DNA from: Candidatus Geocrenenecus arthurdayi
GTDB taxonomy: Archaea > Thermoproteota > Nitrososphaeria_A > Caldarchaeales > Wolframiiraptoraceae
DNA length: 64,000 nucleotides
Reading direction: 5' to 3'
NCBI GenBank assembly: GCA_023539395.1
Contig: JAKCEX010000001.1
Location: forward strand, 21,193 to 85,192
Below are positions 3,841 through 54,973 of this stretch, one piece after another; positions within the stretch are counted from its first letter, which is position 1; each line of letters begins with the position of its first letter. The position numbers and the translations under genes are program-made. The notes beneath the pieces were generated by a model. It was given only the letters and a program-made list of their open reading frames with translations, was not told the DNA's origin and searched no databases.

Positions 3841-3944
3841 TGCCCCGGGCAGGATTTGAACCTGCGACAACCCGGTTCCTCAAGGATATTTTGATGTTTC
3901 TTGATTCTTCAGCCGGGCGCTCTCCCGGGCTGAGCTACCGGGGC
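3841..3944 (-). tRNA. tRNA-Phe(GAA) with an intron of about 30 nt at the canonical 37/38 position.
   Basis: The reverse complement folds with acceptor gccccgg/ccggggc, anticodon loop ctGAAg|intron|a and T loop ttcaaat. The ORF-track 71-aa ORF over this region is spurious. Confidence 0.7.
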
Positions 3945-26071: not shown

Positions 26072-26304
26072 TAATTATCGTCACACCTATGAGTATGCTA
26101 ATATTCCTAATATAAATACTAAAAACTAGGAATCTCAAATTTTCCCATAGTAGCGATGATGGTAGAAGCCTAGACATTCGATTAAGAATGTAGTAATTAA
26201 GATAGCATGAAATCTTAACAATGCTTACCATCCACCTATACAAGAGGCTGCAAAGCATGAGATTTAGGTTATAAGATTCTTTTACATTGTTTTGTCTAGA
26301 GATA

Positions 26305-27843
26305 ATGGGGTTAAGAATAGTTGTTGTAGATTTTGGTGGGCAGTATACACATCTTATAGCGAGGAGAGTTAGAGAGCTTGGAGTCTACTCAGAAATAGTA
26401 GAGCCCGAAAGTCTCCGAGAAGCTTTAGAGAAAGGAGGTGTAGGTGGAATAATACTGTCAGGTGGACCTAAAGCAGTTCTAGAAGCTGGTGCTCCAACAA
26501 TCAACTTAAATTACCTCTCCAGGCTTGATATACCTATCCTCGGGATATGTTATGGACACCAACTGATGGCCAAAGAGTTTGGAGGAGAATTAGCAAGAAG
26601 TTCTTATAGAGAGTATGGTAGAATGAAGGTGAGAGTAATTCATGAAGATGAGCTCTTTCGAGGATTACCTAGTAGCTTCTGGGTCTGGATGAGCCATTGG
26701 GATACAGTTATTAAGCCTCCAGAAGGATGGATTGCTACAAGTATAAGTGAGAAAGGTATCATAACATCGATGAGCGATGGTAAGAGATTCTACTCTACCC
26801 AATTCCATCCAGAAGTCTCTCATACAGAATATGGGTCCAAGATCTTGGAGAATTTCCTTAGAAAGATATGTAAGATAAACCCTTGGTGGAGTCCTGGAGA
26901 CCAAGTATCAAGGATAATCGAAGAAATAAGAAATACTGTTGGAGAAGATGAGAGAGTGATTTGCGCAGTAAGTGGTGGGGTAGATTCAGTTACAACTGCT
27001 GTACTAGTCTCTAAAGCGGTAGGTGAGAGACTCTACAGCATATTTATTGATACTGGTCTATTAAGGAAGAATGAGAGGGAAAACGTAGAGAATACTTTGA
27101 GGAATCTCGGAATTAAGAACTTGATAGTAGTAGATGCTGCAGGTAGATTCTTAGAAAAACTTAAGGGTGTGAGAGACCCTGAAGAGAAGAGGAAGATTAT
27201 AGGAGAAGAATTCATAAGAGTCTTCGAAGAAGTCTCATCTAAAATAGAGAATGTTAGATGGTTAGCTCAAGGAACAATATATCCTGATAGAGTAGAGAGT
27301 GGGAAAGCTAGCAGGCACTCAGCATTAATAAAATCACATCACAATGTTGGTGGATTACCAGAGAAGATGTCTCTAAAGATTCTAGAGCCTCTGAGAGACT
27401 TCTATAAAGATGAAGTAAGAGCAATCGCTAAAAAATTAGGTATACCTAGAGAGATCTGGGCTAGACACCCATTTCCTGGACCTGGTCTTGCAGTAAGGAT
27501 TATAGGAGAAGTAAATGAAGAGAAGCTTAAGATATGTAGAGACGCCTCCGCTATAATTGAAGAAGAATTAATGAAGTCAGGGGTTTACGATATGGTATGG
27601 CAGGCATTCGCAGTAGTTGGAGATGATAGATGGATTGGTGTAATGGGTGATGATAGAATAGAAGGATACATAGTAACGATTAGGATAGTAGAGAGTATAG
27701 ATGGAATGACTGCAGACTGGCATAGAATAGACTATGAAATAATTGATAGAATTAGCCGAAGAATCACCAACGAAGTCTTCAAAGTCACCATGGTAACCTA
27801 CGCAGTATCTTCAAAACCCCCCTCAACCATTGAACCCTGCTAA
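26305..27843 (+). CDS. guaA: GMP synthase (glutamine-hydrolysing), with the GATase and ATP-pyrophosphatase domains fused.
   Basis: The GATase triad region is ICYGHQ, and the PP-loop is SGGVDS. The ORF-track start at 26287 is TTG, so the likely ATG is at 26305. Confidence 0.85.
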   Translation: MGLRIVVVDFGGQYTHLIARRVRELGVYSEIVEPESLREALEKGGVGGIILSGGPKAVLEAGAPTINLNYLSRLDIPILGICYGHQLMAKEFGGELARSSYREYGRMKVRVIHEDELFRGLPSSFWVWMSHWDTVIKPPEGWIATSISEKGIITSMSDGKRFYSTQFHPEVSHTEYGSKILENFLRKICKINPWWSPGDQVSRIIEEIRNTVGEDERVICAVSGGVDSVTTAVLVSKAVGERLYSIFIDTGLLRKNERENVENTLRNLGIKNLIVVDAAGRFLEKLKGVRDPEEKRKIIGEEFIRVFEEVSSKIENVRWLAQGTIYPDRVESGKASRHSALIKSHHNVGGLPEKMSLKILEPLRDFYKDEVRAIAKKLGIPREIWARHPFPGPGLAVRIIGEVNEEKLKICRDASAIIEEELMKSGVYDMVWQAFAVVGDDRWIGVMGDDRIEGYIVTIRIVESIDGMTADWHRIDYEIIDRISRRITNEVFKVTMVTYAVSSKPPSTIEPC

Positions 27844-28293
27844 AGCTCTCAACCCATCTCTCTCCAAGTTATAGGTATCCTCACTATAATGTTAGCCACA
27901 GATTTAGTAAATGTCTAGCATACTGTCGTGTTCTCCCAGCTGAGTTCATATCTCTCTTAAGGGTATTTTTCGATATCACAAGATCTATCAACTAGTCAAT
28001 ACCCTCGGTTTTTATTGTTATTTGTAGGTTTCATATTGTTCCTATTAATGATGCCTAGTCTTCTATCAATTGTGTTTCTAAGCATTAATATTGTTATAGC
28101 ATCTTTCTGTCTTCTGTTCTCAGGTGTCCAAAGAATTTCTTGATAACGTCACTCCTACTAAACCTTTCATGAATGTATTCTAGCCTAAGCCCATTTAATT
28201 CATAAAGATACATTAACCTATAATGTTTAGTGGATCGTTTAATAGGAAAAGATATAATAGTGAGGGTAAAGATTCCCTATAGGTGCTTCTCGA

Positions 28294-29367
28294 TTGAGCC
28301 TACCTGAAAATGTTGTAAAGAATATCTTAGGGATTAAGAAGAAATATTTTGAATATAGAAGTAGTAGGGAAGGTGAAGAATTTGAGAGAGAAAGGAGGAA
28401 ACATGAAGGAGAAGTTAAGAAGATACTTAGCAGGGAAGTATTGAGGAATCTTGATGAAACGAGTCTTCTAACATTAGCTAATAATCTTTATGCATTTATG
28501 TGGTGGACTAAGAAAGAATGGTTAGTGGATTATTGGATCAAAGGAGCTGGTGGAATTGAAAAGTTAAGAGAGAGCCTTGAAAAGTTACTCTATTCAGATC
28601 GTAGTCTAGTTGATAGATTTGACTCATTTCGCAAAAATGTTAAGGGAGTTGGTGTAGCAATGATTACTGAAATGCTGGCGTACTTTAACCCAAAAATATA
28701 CGGGATATGGAATAAGAAAGTCAAGAAGGCTTTACTAAAGCTGGGAATAACTCAAACCGGAGAATCATTCAATATCAACAAGATAAGCATTAATAAGCTT
28801 ACTGGAGAACAATATGAGGCAATAATAGAAACACTTAAAGAAATAGCCAAACTATTAAGAGATGATAAATATCTTCCAGATCCAGACTTACTTGATGTAC
28901 ACTACTTCCTATTCTATTTTACAGAAATTTTAACTCCTGAAGGTGATTCTGAGGATGAGGAATACGGCCATGAAGATGTTGTTAATATGATACTAGAGAT
29001 CGGGAAGGGGCTGGGCTTCGATGTTTTAAGAGAAGTTCCATTAGCAATCGGAACAAGAGTAGATGCTATATGGTCTGCGAGGATAGGTAATCTAGGAGAA
29101 TTAAAGTATGTATTTGAAGTTCATATTAAAGGTGATATCAACTCACTCTTAGTTAACTTGATGAAGGCCTCTCAAGATCCTACTGTTCAGAAAATTGTAG
29201 CAGTAGCAGTTGAGAATGAACTAGAAAGAATAAAGAGAGAAGCTTCTACTCTCAGGGCACTTTCAGATAAAATGTTATACTGGGATATTCGAGAAGTCAG
29301 TAAAGTCCATGAATTAATTGAAGAATTAATGAGTATTATGCAGAGACTTGGTCTAACTAAGATTTGA
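28294..29367 (+). CDS. Hypothetical protein with a C-terminal PD-(D/E)xK (Hjc/NucS/RecB-like) nuclease domain.
   Basis: The C-terminal 130 aa read E(DVVNMILE)...GFDV...VDAIW...FEVHIKGD, matching the E/D/ExK pattern of Hjc/NucS-type nucleases. The N-terminal domain of about 230 aa is unrecognised. It contains an HhH-like GVGVAMITEMLAYFNP segment. The start is a TTG in the ORF track. Confidence 0.4.
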   Translation: MSLPENVVKNILGIKKKYFEYRSSREGEEFERERRKHEGEVKKILSREVLRNLDETSLLTLANNLYAFMWWTKKEWLVDYWIKGAGGIEKLRESLEKLLYSDRSLVDRFDSFRKNVKGVGVAMITEMLAYFNPKIYGIWNKKVKKALLKLGITQTGESFNINKISINKLTGEQYEAIIETLKEIAKLLRDDKYLPDPDLLDVHYFLFYFTEILTPEGDSEDEEYGHEDVVNMILEIGKGLGFDVLREVPLAIGTRVDAIWSARIGNLGELKYVFEVHIKGDINSLLVNLMKASQDPTVQKIVAVAVENELERIKREASTLRALSDKMLYWDIREVSKVHELIEELMSIMQRLGLTKI

Positions 29368-29384: not shown

Positions 29385-30521
29385 TCATCCGATTACTAGT
29401 TTTTCTTGGATTAGTTTATTTTCTCTGAATCTTGTTGGTAGGAATGGTTTCATCAGTTCAGGTATTTTCCCTGTTAGTATGTTTTCTGCTAGTAGTTCTC
29501 CTACTAGTGGAGCCATCATGAATCCATGTCCACTGTATCCGTAAGCTACGTATAGTCCTTCAGGCCATTCTGGTCCTCTACCCATAATATGGCTATTATC
29601 AGCAGACATCATGTAGTAGCCTGCCCAAGTCCTCATTACTCTAGCATTCTTGAGGATAGGAATCCTCTTGGTTATTGCTCTAGCCCATTTAATTACGAAT
29701 TCAAGCTTAGTCTCTAATTTTATTAATCCTGGTGGAGTTGGATAATCTATGGAGCCTAGGATCTCTCCTTTAAGAGTTTGACCTACATAAGCTCCTGAGC
29801 CCATATCTATGATTAGGGGGTCGATAAAGTAATGGTATGGCTCAGTCAGGCAGACTTCTTTCCTTAATGGTTCTGTAGGAAGATGTATACCTATTTTCTC
29901 TAGTAATTCATTAGTCCAAGCACCAGCTGCCAGAACTACAACGTCTACATCTACTAATCCGCTCATAGTCTTTAATTGTTTAACTTTGTTATCTGAAACA
30001 ATTATCTCATTTACAGGAGTGAATTCGTGGAATATTACTCCGAGCTTTTTTGCTAGGGAATAGTATCCGAAGCAGACATAATCATGGTGTAAACTACCAT
30101 CTTGCGGTCCATAGAAGCCTCCTAGAACATCATCAACATTTATGTATGGATATCTTTCTCTAATATCCTCAGGCTCCAAGAAGATTCCCTGAACACCAAG
30201 CTTACTCCACATCTTGTTAGTTTCTTTAAATCTCTCTATTTGATGCTCATTAAATAGAAGCCATAGGTATCCCCCACGATATATTATCGGGTTCCACTCC
30301 ATTTTACCTGCAAGCTTCTCAAGTCTCTTAATAGATTCTATGGCGAATCTACTATTCTCCTCTGTCCAGAAGTGTACTCGGAATCTAGCCCCAGACCTCG
30401 TACTCGACCCATACATTATCCAATTCTTTTCAAATAAATGTATCTCTCCAGCACTTCTTACAGCTAGGTTATAAGCTATTGATAATCCACTTACTCCTCC
30501 ACCTACAATTGCAATCTTCAT
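29385..30521 (-). CDS. FAD-dependent oxidoreductase of the DAO family (sarcosine oxidase beta, proline dehydrogenase beta or HcnC-like).
   Basis: 378 aa. The FAD site is IAIVGGGVSG. Confidence 0.65.
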   Translation of the reverse strand: MKIAIVGGGVSGLSIAYNLAVRSAGEIHLFEKNWIMYGSSTRSGARFRVHFWTEENSRFAIESIKRLEKLAGKMEWNPIIYRGGYLWLLFNEHQIERFKETNKMWSKLGVQGIFLEPEDIRERYPYINVDDVLGGFYGPQDGSLHHDYVCFGYYSLAKKLGVIFHEFTPVNEIIVSDNKVKQLKTMSGLVDVDVVVLAAGAWTNELLEKIGIHLPTEPLRKEVCLTEPYHYFIDPLIIDMGSGAYVGQTLKGEILGSIDYPTPPGLIKLETKLEFVIKWARAITKRIPILKNARVMRTWAGYYMMSADNSHIMGRGPEWPEGLYVAYGYSGHGFMMAPLVGELLAENILTGKIPELMKPFLPTRFRENKLIQEKLVIG

Positions 30522-32305
30522 CCTCCTTCTCCTCCAGCCAGGACGTGTAAAGGTATGGGGGTAGTTGGTGCTCTAGCCTTTGTTAATCCAACTTGGTTAG
30601 GGTCTAGGTTGGAGAGGTATGAAACGTATAGTGCAGAATTAACCATGCATAATCTTCCCTGGCATCTTCCAGTACAAACACCTAAGCTTCTCTTAACCAA
30701 TTCAAGTGTTCTGTATCCTTTTTCGTAAACTGTTCTTGAAATATCCTTAGTGGTTACGTCTTCGCAGAAGCATATGAATGCATCTCTCCTTGGTTTCTCA
30801 ATGAAGAGTGTGGGTGGATAAGAAAATGATGTATTCTCTATTAATCCGCTTATTGAAATCTCAAAGATTTTATTCTTCCATTCCAGATTCATCTCACTCA
30901 ACTTTAATCTATACTCTCTAATTTTCTCTTCCATAAGTGGTTCAGCATCTTTTACTCCCAGCTTATATGCTACTGATAAAGCAGCTATCTCTCCTTCAAT
31001 TAAGTGTAGTATACTGTAGGGTGAGCCTGAAACACCTCCAGCTATGAAGATGTTATCTTTTAGATGCATATATTCATCATGGATTGGGATGAACCCAACA
31101 TTATCTAAAAATACTATCTTGGAATCAAGCTGATTTAGAATCCTTACATCTGGAGTAGAGAAGGCGGAGCATGCTATGAAGTCTACTTTCACTTCATCTC
31201 TTCCATTATCATGTATTATATTCACTCTTTCAACACATGTTTTTCCAGAAGCTTGAATCTCCTTCACACTACCTACATATTCTCCAATCTTTGATAAGTC
31301 ATACCTCACTTCTTCGGGTTTTGAATGGCTTACTAATACAATGTCTATACCCAGCCGTTTCAATTGTTCTGCAATTCTTAAACTATTTTGAGAAAGACCT
31401 ATTATCAAGCCTCTTCTCCCTGGCTCTACTCCATAGTAGTTAACCATCTCTAAAACAGTTGAACCTGAGAAGACTCCTGGAAGGTCATTATTTCTAAATA
31501 TGCAGGGTACGTCAACTAACCCAGTAGCAATAATGTATGCTTTAGCTTTCAGAACGTAGAGAACCTTATCATACTCAGAGTATGCTGTAGGATGATCTTC
31601 AAAAAACCCCGTAAAAACAGTTCTAGTAAGAATACTAACATTCCCGCTTGCATTAACCTTATTTAGAAGATCTTGTAGGAGATTCTCTCTAGGCATGGAT
31701 ATTCCTGGAATATCCATATGGTCATACCTCATTCTGCCACCAAGAGCTGGAGAATCATCTATTAAGAGAACCCTCAACCCTAGCTTGCTAGTAGTATACG
31801 TTGCTACTAATCCTGATAATCCTCCTCCAACGACAACAACATCTGATTTAACTTCAAGTATCCTACCAGTCTTCTCTGCTTCTATATCTCCTATTCTCGG
31901 ATGATTTGCCAACTTCTTTATTTTATCCGCAGCTAAACTCCATAGAATCTTATTCTTCAATAATCTTCTATGCTGAAAGTATCCATCTAAGAGAGGCGTG
32001 AAAAGCTTTACCAAGAATGGTACTGAGAGGTCAACATGTGCTTCTTGACCTTCTTGACAGAAGACTTCGCATGGATTTACATATTCGCTTCCAACCCTAG
32101 TTAAGACCAACCTATCCTGAGGGCTTAGACTATAGAACCCCCTCACTCTGTACAGCTTCTTACTCCTACTAAGTACTTTAAACCCATTATGGTAAAGTGC
32201 TATAGAAACTGGCTCAAGAGTATAACCCTCAACACCTACACCACGAAAAAAGATACGAACCCTACTACCTCTCCTCTCCTGAATAGTGTCACCAAATAGA
32301 CTCAT
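30518..32305 (-). CDS. FAD/NAD(P)-binding oxidoreductase alpha subunit (sarcosine oxidase alpha, HcnB or proline dehydrogenase alpha-like) with a BFD-like [2Fe-2S] domain.
   Basis: 595 aa. The Rossmann is VVVVGGGLSG and the C-terminal Cys cluster is CFCEDV...CTGRCQGRLC. It overlaps the beta-subunit gene by 4 nt. Confidence 0.55.
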   Translation of the reverse strand: MSLFGDTIQERRGSRVRIFFRGVGVEGYTLEPVSIALYHNGFKVLSRSKKLYRVRGFYSLSPQDRLVLTRVGSEYVNPCEVFCQEGQEAHVDLSVPFLVKLFTPLLDGYFQHRRLLKNKILWSLAADKIKKLANHPRIGDIEAEKTGRILEVKSDVVVVGGGLSGLVATYTTSKLGLRVLLIDDSPALGGRMRYDHMDIPGISMPRENLLQDLLNKVNASGNVSILTRTVFTGFFEDHPTAYSEYDKVLYVLKAKAYIIATGLVDVPCIFRNNDLPGVFSGSTVLEMVNYYGVEPGRRGLIIGLSQNSLRIAEQLKRLGIDIVLVSHSKPEEVRYDLSKIGEYVGSVKEIQASGKTCVERVNIIHDNGRDEVKVDFIACSAFSTPDVRILNQLDSKIVFLDNVGFIPIHDEYMHLKDNIFIAGGVSGSPYSILHLIEGEIAALSVAYKLGVKDAEPLMEEKIREYRLKLSEMNLEWKNKIFEISISGLIENTSFSYPPTLFIEKPRRDAFICFCEDVTTKDISRTVYEKGYRTLELVKRSLGVCTGRCQGRLCMVNSALYVSYLSNLDPNQVGLTKARAPTTPIPLHVLAGGEGG

Positions 32306-33253: not shown

Positions 33254-33343
33254 TGGGCCGGGTGGGATTCGAACCCACGTCCTCCGCCGTTTCCTTGACA
33301 ATCTCCTGTAAGGGCGGCGTCATAACCTCTAGACTACCGGCCC
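33254..33343 (-). tRNA. tRNA-Val(TAC) with an intron of about 17 nt at position 37/38.
   Basis: The acceptor is gggccgg/ccggccc. The anticodon loop reads cttaca|intron|c between the stem halves ccgcc/ggcgg. The T loop is ttcgaat. Confidence 0.65.
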
Positions 33344-33548: not shown

Positions 33549-33674
33549 TGCGGGGGGTGGGATTCGAACCCACGAACCCCTTCGGGATTCCCCTCTAGAT
33601 GCGTTCAGGGGTTCTCATCCAGTGTGAGGTGGATCCTGAGCCCTGCGCCTTTGACCTGGCTTGGCTACCCCCGC
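33549..33674 (-). tRNA. tRNA-Leu(CAG) with two putative introns (one in the anticodon loop, one in the variable-arm region).
   Basis: 126 nt in total. The acceptor is gcggggg/cccccgc, the D arm is GCC...GGC (Ser/Leu-like) and the anticodon stem is caggg/ccctg with loop ctCAGg. About 22 nt are inserted 3' of the anticodon. A further insert of about 17 nt precedes a cccgaaggg variable-arm hairpin. The exact intron boundaries are not resolved by eye. Confidence 0.5.
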
Positions 33675-54560: not shown

Positions 54561-54973
54561 TACAATGGATAGGTTGTCTAAGCTATTCAAGTTTAATAAT
54601 TATCCATTGGGTGAGAAGGCTTAATCTATTATGCTTCATATTGCTGGTTTAAGCCTTAGAGACCTCTCAGAGATGTACTATGTAACGATGGCTTCCAAAA
54701 AGAGTGTTAGGAGATGATGCCATAGATTCTCAAGGATATTCTCTGTAGAGAAGAAGTTTAGGGATACTGTTGGGAGATTCTTCAGATACCTAAAACAGAG
54801 GACTAGAAGATTCTACAACAATATAAATACTTGGAGTATCAAGTCTATAGAAGACTATGCATCAGCAATAGCAATAATAAGAAACATACTCACAATAATG
54901 AAAACACAAGAAGGCCTATTACCTGGCATGACAGGATCATCTCGATATTACTTGTAGAAGCTTTTTAAGAACC

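Follow-up and report, generated by a model that had tools for sequence, protein, structure and literature searches.

The locus considered here raises the question of what a lone nuclease gene does among the metabolic genes of a thermophilic archaeon, and of what its N-terminal half might read. The gene lies at 28294..29367 on the forward strand of a 64,000-nucleotide stretch of Candidatus (Ca.) Geocrenenecus arthurdayi DNA (contig JAKCEX010000001.1), which in its entirety we call the window. The initial annotation, made from the letters alone, had described the product as an orphan in which an N-terminal domain of no recognisable family is joined to a C-terminal nuclease domain of the Hjc/NucS type, and had guessed at a solitary defence or repair nuclease. 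That guess is supported by the present analysis, and we conclude that the protein, in which an OGG-like sensor is fused to a PD-(D/E)xK nuclease, is probably an END nuclease, a solitary restriction endonuclease of the type IV-like, modification-dependent sort.

The coding sequence is complete, running for 357 residues from a TTG start to a TGA stop in the list of open reading frames (ORFs) and in the sequence itself, and it contains exactly the peptide segments first quoted from it. Homologs of the protein reach down to E = 7e-228, which establishes a real gene and not a chance ORF, and the protein is 99% identical to proteins from metagenome-assembled genomes (MAGs) of Ca. Geocrenenecus arthurdayi. 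The non-ATG start proposed at the outset is supported by the aligned start codon that the orthologs have in common, which is TTG in Ca. Geocrenenecus huangii and ATG in the orthologs of Wolframiiraptor, Terraquivivens and another aigarchaeon. The two-domain layout is likewise borne out by an AlphaFold2 model made with the family alignment (pLDDT 88.4 for the whole protein). An acidic linker, PEGDSEDEEY (residues 215-224, 28936..28965, + strand), separates the domains; its length varies across the alignment, and residues 216-221 form the sole low-confidence stretch of the model (pLDDT < 50).

The N-terminal domain (residues 1-214, 28294..28935, + strand) had been thought unplaceable, but at the level of the family it can be assigned to an all-helical, Ogg2-like fold of the HhH-GPD type. 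The query itself matches Pfam PF21790 (OGG-like) over residues 61-200 at E = 0.011, under the gathering score, whereas 15 of 32 family members match that model, the best of them at E = 2.7e-9. Modelled alone, the domain reaches a pLDDT of 93.6 and a pTM of 0.90. The top four Foldseek matches of this model among structures of the Protein Data Bank (PDB) are all Ogg2 enzymes, namely MjOgg (3KNT, two chains), TmOgg (3N0U; probability 0.97, TM 0.52/0.53) and SsOgg (3FHG), with MutY, hOGG1 and EndoIII appearing as weaker, lower-ranked matches. As the E-values of these matches (0.1 or above) are not significant alone, the Ogg2 assignment is drawn from the consistent ranking together with the Pfam result.

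The HhH-like segment that had been noted in this domain proves to be a genuine HhH-GPD motif, located at residues 116-140 (VKGVGVAMITEMLAYFNPKIYGIWN; 28639..28713, + strand). The catalytic residues were mapped with HhH-GPD motifs taken from Ogg2 structures in the PDB, MjOgg included, by an ungapped BLOSUM62 scan across the family alignment. A single register stands out, at residue 116 (z = 4.0-4.5, all other offsets giving 2.9 or less), and it aligns K117-G-x-G120 with the Ogg2 hairpin. In Ogg2 enzymes the catalytic Lys lies two residues past the G-x-G hairpin and the catalytic Asp 18 residues later; both are absent here, the equivalent positions being Ala122 (28657-28659, + strand) and Asn140 (28711-28713, + strand). 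Conservation was counted over 208 aligned sequences, with totals that vary by position. Position 122 is Ala (132) or Ser (45) and never Lys, position 140 is Asn in 181 of 190 and never Asp, and Glu126 is conserved in 185 of 188, so that the family as a whole has an Ogg2-like fold in which the glycosylase/lyase residues have been replaced. Among the PDB sequences themselves, the 3KNT chain has Gln at the position of the catalytic Lys, and one and the same Ogg2 protein carries Asn at the Asp position in 9o01 and 9o02 and Asp in 9o00.

An active Ogg2 glycosylase was considered and rejected on the absence of these catalytic residues, and the domain is predicted to be a catalytically inactive base reader. 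It resembles the Ogg2 enzymes (MjOgg 3KNT/3FHF, SsOgg 3FHG, TmOgg 3N0U) in having an HhH-GPD fold, about 205-215 residues long and with a TM of up to 0.52, and in its K-G-x-G hairpin and the spacing of its motif, but differs from them in the family-wide changes of Lys to Ala/Ser and of Asp to Asn and has only about 13-15% sequence identity to them; given its fusion to a nuclease, it does not belong to a glycosylase family in the enzymatic sense.

The C-terminal domain (residues 225-357, 28966..29364, + strand) has a PD-(D/E)xK-type nuclease fold by AlphaFold2, Foldseek and hhalign, so that structure prediction upholds the restriction-endonuclease-like fold that had been proposed for it. The model contains the alpha-beta-beta-beta-alpha-beta core of the superfamily, in the order alpha 226-239, beta 243-251, 254-264 and 268-277, alpha 282-293 and beta 298-305, followed by an alpha-beta-alpha extension. 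Foldseek matches of the whole model are almost exclusively PD-(D/E)xK nucleases (probability up to 0.99, E of at least 5e-3); they include EcoT38I (E = 5e-3), MspJI, BsaWI, Cap4, Can2, Cdn1 and OkrAI, and NucS (2VLD, probability 0.99) and EndoMS (5GKE, probability 0.95) are among the best. The Hjc/NucS likeness thus stands at the level of the fold, a minimal PD-(D/E)xK core, but membership of either family was rejected. The canonical ExK Lys and the N-terminal DNA-binding/dimerisation domain of NucS are both missing, an HhH-GPD domain taking the place of the latter, and Hjc is a single-domain dimer of about 140 residues with an E / D / E-x-K site, in contrast to the 357-residue, two-domain protein described here. 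Neither the protein nor the family profile, when searched against PDB chains, had a meaningful match or any similarity to NucS, and no Hjc match was found in the Pfam, PDB sequence or Foldseek searches.

The active site itself departs somewhat from the E / D / ExK constellation that had been read from the sequence. The predicted active-site strands (29032..29124, + strand) carry E247 (29032-29034, 142/185), D257 of the VDAIW segment (29062-29064, 153/179) and E275-V-H277 of the FEVH segment (29116-29124), E275 being conserved in 178 of 180. In the model D257 and E275 face each other on the beta2-beta3 hairpin formed by the antiparallel strands 254-264 and 268-277. Position 277, the equivalent of the canonical Lys position, is His in 86 sequences, Gln in 63 and Glu in 25. 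D257 and E275 of the original proposal are therefore retained, but the proposed catalytic Glu of the HEDVV segment, E227, is Asp, Glu, Asn or Gly in homologs (it is the neighbouring H226 that is conserved, in 187 of 191), and K279 is Lys in only 70 of 180, so that two of the three positions of the proposed triad had been assigned wrongly. From the conservation of D257, E275 and His/Gln/Glu277 we read the site as D...E-x-[H/Q/E] and not as canonical ExK. Variants of the PD-(D/E)xK site in which the Lys is replaced are known, E-x-E from BamHI and E-x-Q from BglII. The conserved residues of this domain also include Q299-K300, which could supply a Lys.

By profile comparison the C-terminal domain is distantly related to Pfam NmeDI_C (PF27126). 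Close homologs carry 'faint' precomputed matches to PF27126, and the query has no Pfam match to NmeDI_C, the PF27126 model being absent from the Pfam copy that was searched. Comparison by hhalign of the family profile with a PF27126-bearing protein of about 420 residues, named 'type II restriction endonuclease' in RefSeq, gave a probability of 94.9 and E = 4.7e-8 in an alignment that begins at the HhH motif and extends over the whole nuclease domain, and a subfamily of about 390-400 residues (e.g. P0230) combines an OGG-like N-terminal domain with a clear NmeDI_C domain. The PF27126 proteins of about 420 residues share with the query family the nuclease motifs H...(I/V)D(V/A)(I/V)W...FEV(E/H), but they have an insertion of about 30 residues between beta1 and beta2 that is absent from the query, and Glu (E-x-E) where the query family has His or Gln.

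This sister family is large, with more than 7,000 proteins, and has no adjacent DNA methyltransferase. Its plasmid loci include those of Caballeronia (L089 3629-4888), Enterococcus (L090 3662-4945), Deinococcus (L091 3659-4924), Roseomonas (L093 3132-4391) and Paraburkholderia (L095 3129-4388). On five of the six plasmids inspected its neighbours are genes of copper or heavy-metal homeostasis, of the kinds P-type ATPase, multicopper oxidase, CopY-type regulator, four-helix-bundle copper-binding protein and Nramp/DUF305; this copper and heavy-metal association suggests that the RefSeq name of the family may be wrong.

The combination of a dead glycosylase fold with a nuclease has recently been described in bacteria. 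In a 2025 preprint entitled 'END nucleases: Antiphage defense systems targeting multiple hypermodified phage genomes' (bioRxiv 10.1101/2025.03.31.646159; PMC12191111), an inactivated EndoIII/OGG-like domain, whose HHpred matches include PF21790, senses hypermodified bases in a type IV-like manner; its fusion partners are a PLD nuclease (in END-PaCF1), a 'NucS-like PD-DExK' nuclease and McrB. The 'PD-DExK-iEndoIII' representative, END-Mag (MDV2503288.1), comes from an Atlantic pelagic-sediment metagenome and has SsOgg, MjOgg and TmOgg as its top HHpred matches; it restricts the modified-G phages Pa5Oct, Bas19-21 and Bas25 and spares phages with modified T or C as well as unmodified phages (PMC12191111). 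The members described come from bacteria and metagenomes, and the sensor domain was concluded to be inactive (PMC12191111); among the papers searched in full text, PF21790 or iEndoIII was mentioned in that report only.

The archaeal protein resembles END-Mag in its inactivated PF21790-type sensor, fused to a 'NucS-like' PD-DExK nuclease whose residues D257, E275 and His/Gln/Glu277 are conserved, in being encoded by a stand-alone gene with no cognate methyltransferase, and in the three enzymes, SsOgg, MjOgg and TmOgg, that come out as the closest structural matches of its sensor. It differs in coming from a thermophilic archaeon and from a housekeeping context. END-PaCF1 and its relatives also couple a dead, PF21790-like HhH-GPD domain that senses hypermodified bases to a nuclease, but there the nuclease is of the PLD type and the iEndoIII domain is C-terminal, whereas here the C-terminal domain is the PD-(D/E)xK nuclease. 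More broadly, the MspJI, PvuRts1I and McrBC type IV systems couple a base-flipping reader (SRA, EVE, YTH, DUF3578) to a nuclease or to McrB, and the reader domain of the present family also occurs on McrB homologs; in those systems the reader is of the SRA/PUA type and not of the HhH-GPD glycosylase fold. On these comparisons the protein is an archaeal, unannotated member of a recently described kind of defence nuclease.

A mechanism can be proposed from these parts. The Ogg2-like domain, with Ala122 and Asn140 in place of the catalytic residues, would serve as a reader only, binding DNA through its helix-hairpin-helix and probing or flipping bases into the former lesion pocket, where it would recognise non-canonical, hypermodified bases in the DNA of an invading virus or plasmid. 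By analogy with the tested relative, the reader would most likely target guanine that carries its modification on the N7/C8 edge, for example a 7-deazaguanine derivative, the modified-G preference being the most plausible one given the ancestry of the pocket and the phenotype of END-Mag. The C-terminal domain, with D257 and E275-x-H277 together with E247 in a BamHI/BglII-like variant of the site, would then cleave the DNA nearby, probably as a dimer. Host DNA would lack the modification, and a protective methyltransferase would thus be unnecessary. For the archaeal protein we infer the target chemistry, the cleavage geometry and the oligomeric state, and for the restriction phenotype of our favoured reading we rely on a protein of like architecture that restricts modified-G phages. 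What is observed here is how the protein is built, that the glycosylase residues have been lost and the nuclease residues kept, that the reader is reused, and that the distribution is patchy and defence-associated.

The distribution and modularity of the family bear on this reading. The description of the protein as an orphan does not survive database searches: a word-indexed search found 61 homologs, and an exhaustive profile search, run over 1.84 billion cluster representatives, returned 1,944 of them at E <= 1e-3, of which 782 remained at E <= 1e-10 and 269 at E <= 1e-30. Relatives are encoded in 272 of 185,579 species of GTDB (one genome per species), scattered over archaeal phyla (Wolframiiraptoraceae/Aigarchaeota, Brockarchaeota, Archaeoglobaceae, Methanobacteriaceae, Aenigmatarchaeota and Nitrosocaldus among the carriers) and bacterial phyla (including Chloroflexota, Bacteroidales, Clostridia, Proteobacteria and Planctomycetes); CL1_1074 is the homolog in Thermococcus cleftensis. 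Plasmids of Methanothermobacter tenebrarum, Halomarina, Natronosalvus and Monoglobus, four in number and archaeal except for the last, also carry copies, and every one is annotated 'hypothetical protein'. There are no homologs in 50,697 phage records, and IMG/VR holds one in 2.9 million contigs. The patchiness of the sequence matches is consistent with horizontal transfer.

The N-terminal domain recurs in metagenomic proteins in other company: with EVE and a McrB-type AAA_5 domain (P0161), as tandem copies with AAA_5 (P0162), with AAA_5 (P0258) and with a FokI cleavage domain (P0206). The McrB, EVE and FokI partners are effectors typical of type IV restriction and support our favoured reading. 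Three further called proteins (P0080, P0110 and P0136) continue into ParE, OLD-type ATPase/TOPRIM and type I S-subunit sequence and are probably neighbouring genes merged by the gene caller. In several MAGs (the P0007 cluster; Ca. Geocrenenecus dongiae and related genomes) the ortholog is split into two adjacent fragments of 97 + 248 or 85 + 261 residues under consecutive locus tags. Such copies have suffered a frameshift or become pseudogenes, or else the assembly is in error; for a defence gene that is costly to keep, losing its function now and then would be in character.

A survey of 78 GTDB loci yielded 126 immediate neighbours from 109 Pfam families, and the gene therefore has no fixed partner; in particular, no methyltransferase partner is conserved across the 78 loci. 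The commonest neighbour families are those of restriction-modification and defence (ResIII 6, N6_Mtase 4, SWI2_SNF2 4, Eco57I 4), accompanied by type I R domains, Mrr_cat (2), HNH_2 (2) and Methylase_S (2), and the PADLOC models that match neighbours are those of type I and IIG enzymes, MADS, PbeA, DrmMI and PglX. The neighbouring methyltransferases that were seen are parts of complete type I or IIG systems. We take the neighbours rich in restriction-modification genes elsewhere, together with the patchy distribution, as support for a restriction function. In one aigarchaeal MAG (JANXDS010000001.1; L004 559-7854) the ortholog directly follows a tyrosine integrase, a 687-residue PrimPol protein and many small ORFs, a gene content that puts it at the border of an integrated mobile element, whereas the copy in the window stands among housekeeping genes.

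The initial annotation had seen here the type of locus where solitary defence or repair nucleases are found and had asked whether it is variable, in the manner of an island, or core; in this genome it is not an island. The gene is indeed solitary and lies, as first described, between guaA and convergent oxidoreductase genes, as the Pfam matches of the neighbours confirm: guaA (GATase + GMP_synt_C, 26287..27843) is upstream, and a DAO-type FAD oxidoreductase gene (29385..30521) and a gene for a sarcosine-oxidase-alpha-like protein (30518..32305) are convergent and downstream. Within 10 kb on either side in the window there is no methyltransferase and the neighbours are all metabolic. Sister genera retain part of this gene order: the two oxidoreductase genes also lie downstream of the nuclease gene in Ca. 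G. huangii, and in W. sinensis genes for a HAD hydrolase and a CitMHS transporter separate it from guaA, 2.6 kb upstream; the contexts in Terraquivivens and others are unrelated. The nuclease is 69% identical to that of Ca. G. huangii, against 83% and 67% for the neighbours, and 63% identical to that of W. sinensis, against 70% for guaA.

Several points weigh against a defence function, and they are best considered with the alternatives that they favour. The housekeeping setting, the synteny partly conserved in sister genera and a rate of divergence like that of the neighbours make the context look more like that of a lineage-conserved function than that of a fast-turnover defence island, and the copper and heavy-metal neighbours of the sister family hint at a link with damage. 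These observations would suit the main rival reading, a damage-directed repair endonuclease, in which the dead OGG-like domain finds a lesion in the cell's own DNA, such as an oxidised or alkylated guanine, and the nuclease nicks beside it to start an alternative excision or incision repair, following a logic like that of EndoMS/NucS, Endonuclease V or UVDE that would be useful to an anaerobic thermophile. The closest structural relatives are themselves repair enzymes (8-oxoguanine glycosylases for the sensor, NucS/EndoMS for the nuclease), the divergence is similar to that of the adjacent metabolic genes, synteny is partly kept across Geocrenenecus and Wolframiiraptor, and the sister family sits beside copper and heavy-metal resistance genes on most of the plasmids inspected, copper stress being a source of oxidative base damage. 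We nevertheless regard repair as rather unlikely, because a general repair enzyme would not be expected in so few species and in so patchy a pattern across two domains of life, because the commonest neighbours elsewhere are restriction-modification genes and the sensor is fused to restriction modules (McrB, EVE, FokI) and not to repair modules, because some MAGs carry split copies, and because the tested protein of the same architecture restricts phages with specificity for modified G (PMC12191111). A narrower form of the idea, that within the Wolframiiraptoraceae the gene encodes a lineage-conserved genome-maintenance nuclease whose dead 8-oxoguanine-glycosylase domain finds damaged guanines and directs incision next to them, seems to us unlikely; if true, it would amount to a previously undescribed route of lesion-directed incision repair in thermophilic archaea, and the copper-resistance link of the sister family would reflect the same damage sensing.

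The relationship of the C-terminal domain to NmeDI_C raises a different possibility, that of a conventional sequence-specific type II enzyme (IIS/IIB-like) related to R.NmeDI, in which the helical N-terminal domain would read DNA sequence, the C-terminal domain would cut at a distance, and the protecting methyltransferase would lie at another locus or no longer exist. R.NmeDI is a type II enzyme of 351 residues that cuts on both sides of RCCGGY and whose nmeDIR gene is overlapped by the methyltransferase gene nmeDIM (PMC2095814); the RefSeq name of the sister family and the methyltransferases adjoining some homologs (including that on pRMAS01) point the same way. R.NmeDI differs, however, in having a cognate C5-methyltransferase and an unmodified RCCGGY target, where the present gene has guaA and FAD oxidoreductases for neighbours. 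A sequence-specific nuclease without protection would be lethal, and neither the surroundings of this gene nor the survey of loci offers a methyltransferase other than those belonging to complete systems. The N-terminal domain, moreover, has a base-flipping glycosylase fold and is not a known sequence-reading module, the McrB and EVE fusions point to the reading of modifications, and the query is below any Pfam threshold for NmeDI_C, so far as the Pfam copy searched can tell. Such an enzyme strikes us as quite improbable. Glu126 and Asn140 pose a further difficulty for a purely passive reader, as these near-invariant residues could in principle sustain a residual or alternative glycosylase chemistry, and their conservation is at a level usual for catalytic residues. 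A bifunctional restriction glycosylase-nuclease might then excise the modified base through Glu126/Asn140 and cleave the DNA where the base was removed or close by. A catalytic Asn is found in certain glycosylase families (MUG/TDG), there are monofunctional HhH-GPD enzymes that lack the Lys, and glycosylase-based defence exists (Brig1, cited in PMC12191111). Yet Asp is the universal catalytic residue of HhH-GPD enzymes, its change to Asn serves to trap inactive complexes, as the 9o01 and 9o02 sequences suggest, and the authors of the END preprint concluded that the domain is inactive and serves as a sensor (PMC12191111); we think this the case only with very low probability.

Against a modification-dependent restriction endonuclease there also stand the weak Foldseek E-values (at best 5e-3 for the whole model and 0.1 for the N-terminal domain), the nature of the END-Mag comparison, which is one of architecture and best structural relatives made by description and not by sequence, and the failure of any PADLOC model to match the protein (NCBIfam likewise gave no usable match). 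With these points taken into account, that reading is still the one we think probable.

The DNA upstream of the gene is of some interest in its own right. The spacer at 27844..28293 is, as had been noted, AT-rich and free of ORFs: it is 450 nt long, has a GC content of 34.7% and contains no ORF of more than 42 codons. It likely carries the promoter of the nuclease gene, as the sequence includes a TATA-like element (ATATAATA, 28252-28259), 35-42 nt 5' of the TTG, and a GGTG (28282-28285), 8 nt 5' of the TTG, the promoter role of the one and the role of the other being read from sequence and position; the orthologs are likewise preceded by comparable TATA-like boxes and GGTG. The nuclease gene itself has a GC content of 35.1%, against 40.1% for guaA, 39.3% for the DAO gene and 38.9% for the window, and this mild AT-richness of gene and spacer could reflect either a foreign origin or merely a composition rich in Lys and Glu.

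A segment of about 133 nt occurs with 74% identity at two intergenic sites of the window, within the spacer (28008-28139) and, in opposite orientation, at 54774-54905. Translations of the two copies are alike over about 60 residues (e.g. FFRYLKQRTRRFYNNIN / SIEDYASAIAIIRN), that of the spacer copy being interrupted by stops, and neither matches a Pfam family. The repeat may be what is left of a gene, or else a mobile or repetitive element of small size; it had raised the suspicion that the spacer holds a decayed transposase, for which the translations gave no Pfam match. Elsewhere in the window Rfam identifies six tRNAs, three of which, at 3841-3944, 33254-33343 and 33549-33674 on the minus strand, are much longer than 75 nt. 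ARAGORN misses two and gives a third without an anticodon name; these are most likely intron-containing archaeal tRNA genes.

In summary, the analysis gives a testable function to a protein that is annotated everywhere as 'hypothetical' and for which RefSeq, JGI, NCBIfam and PADLOC have no model, and it would extend the END class from bacteria to thermophilic, methanogenic and halophilic archaea and their plasmids. The family-wide replacement of Lys by Ala or Ser and of Asp by Asn offers a clean natural case of a repair glycosylase turned into a reader domain, and the archaeal members are potential thermostable enzymes for detecting and cutting hypermodified DNA. If our favoured reading is true, hot springs would hold archaeal viruses or plasmids with hypermodified bases, probably modified G, in sufficient numbers for a sensor of this kind to be kept.

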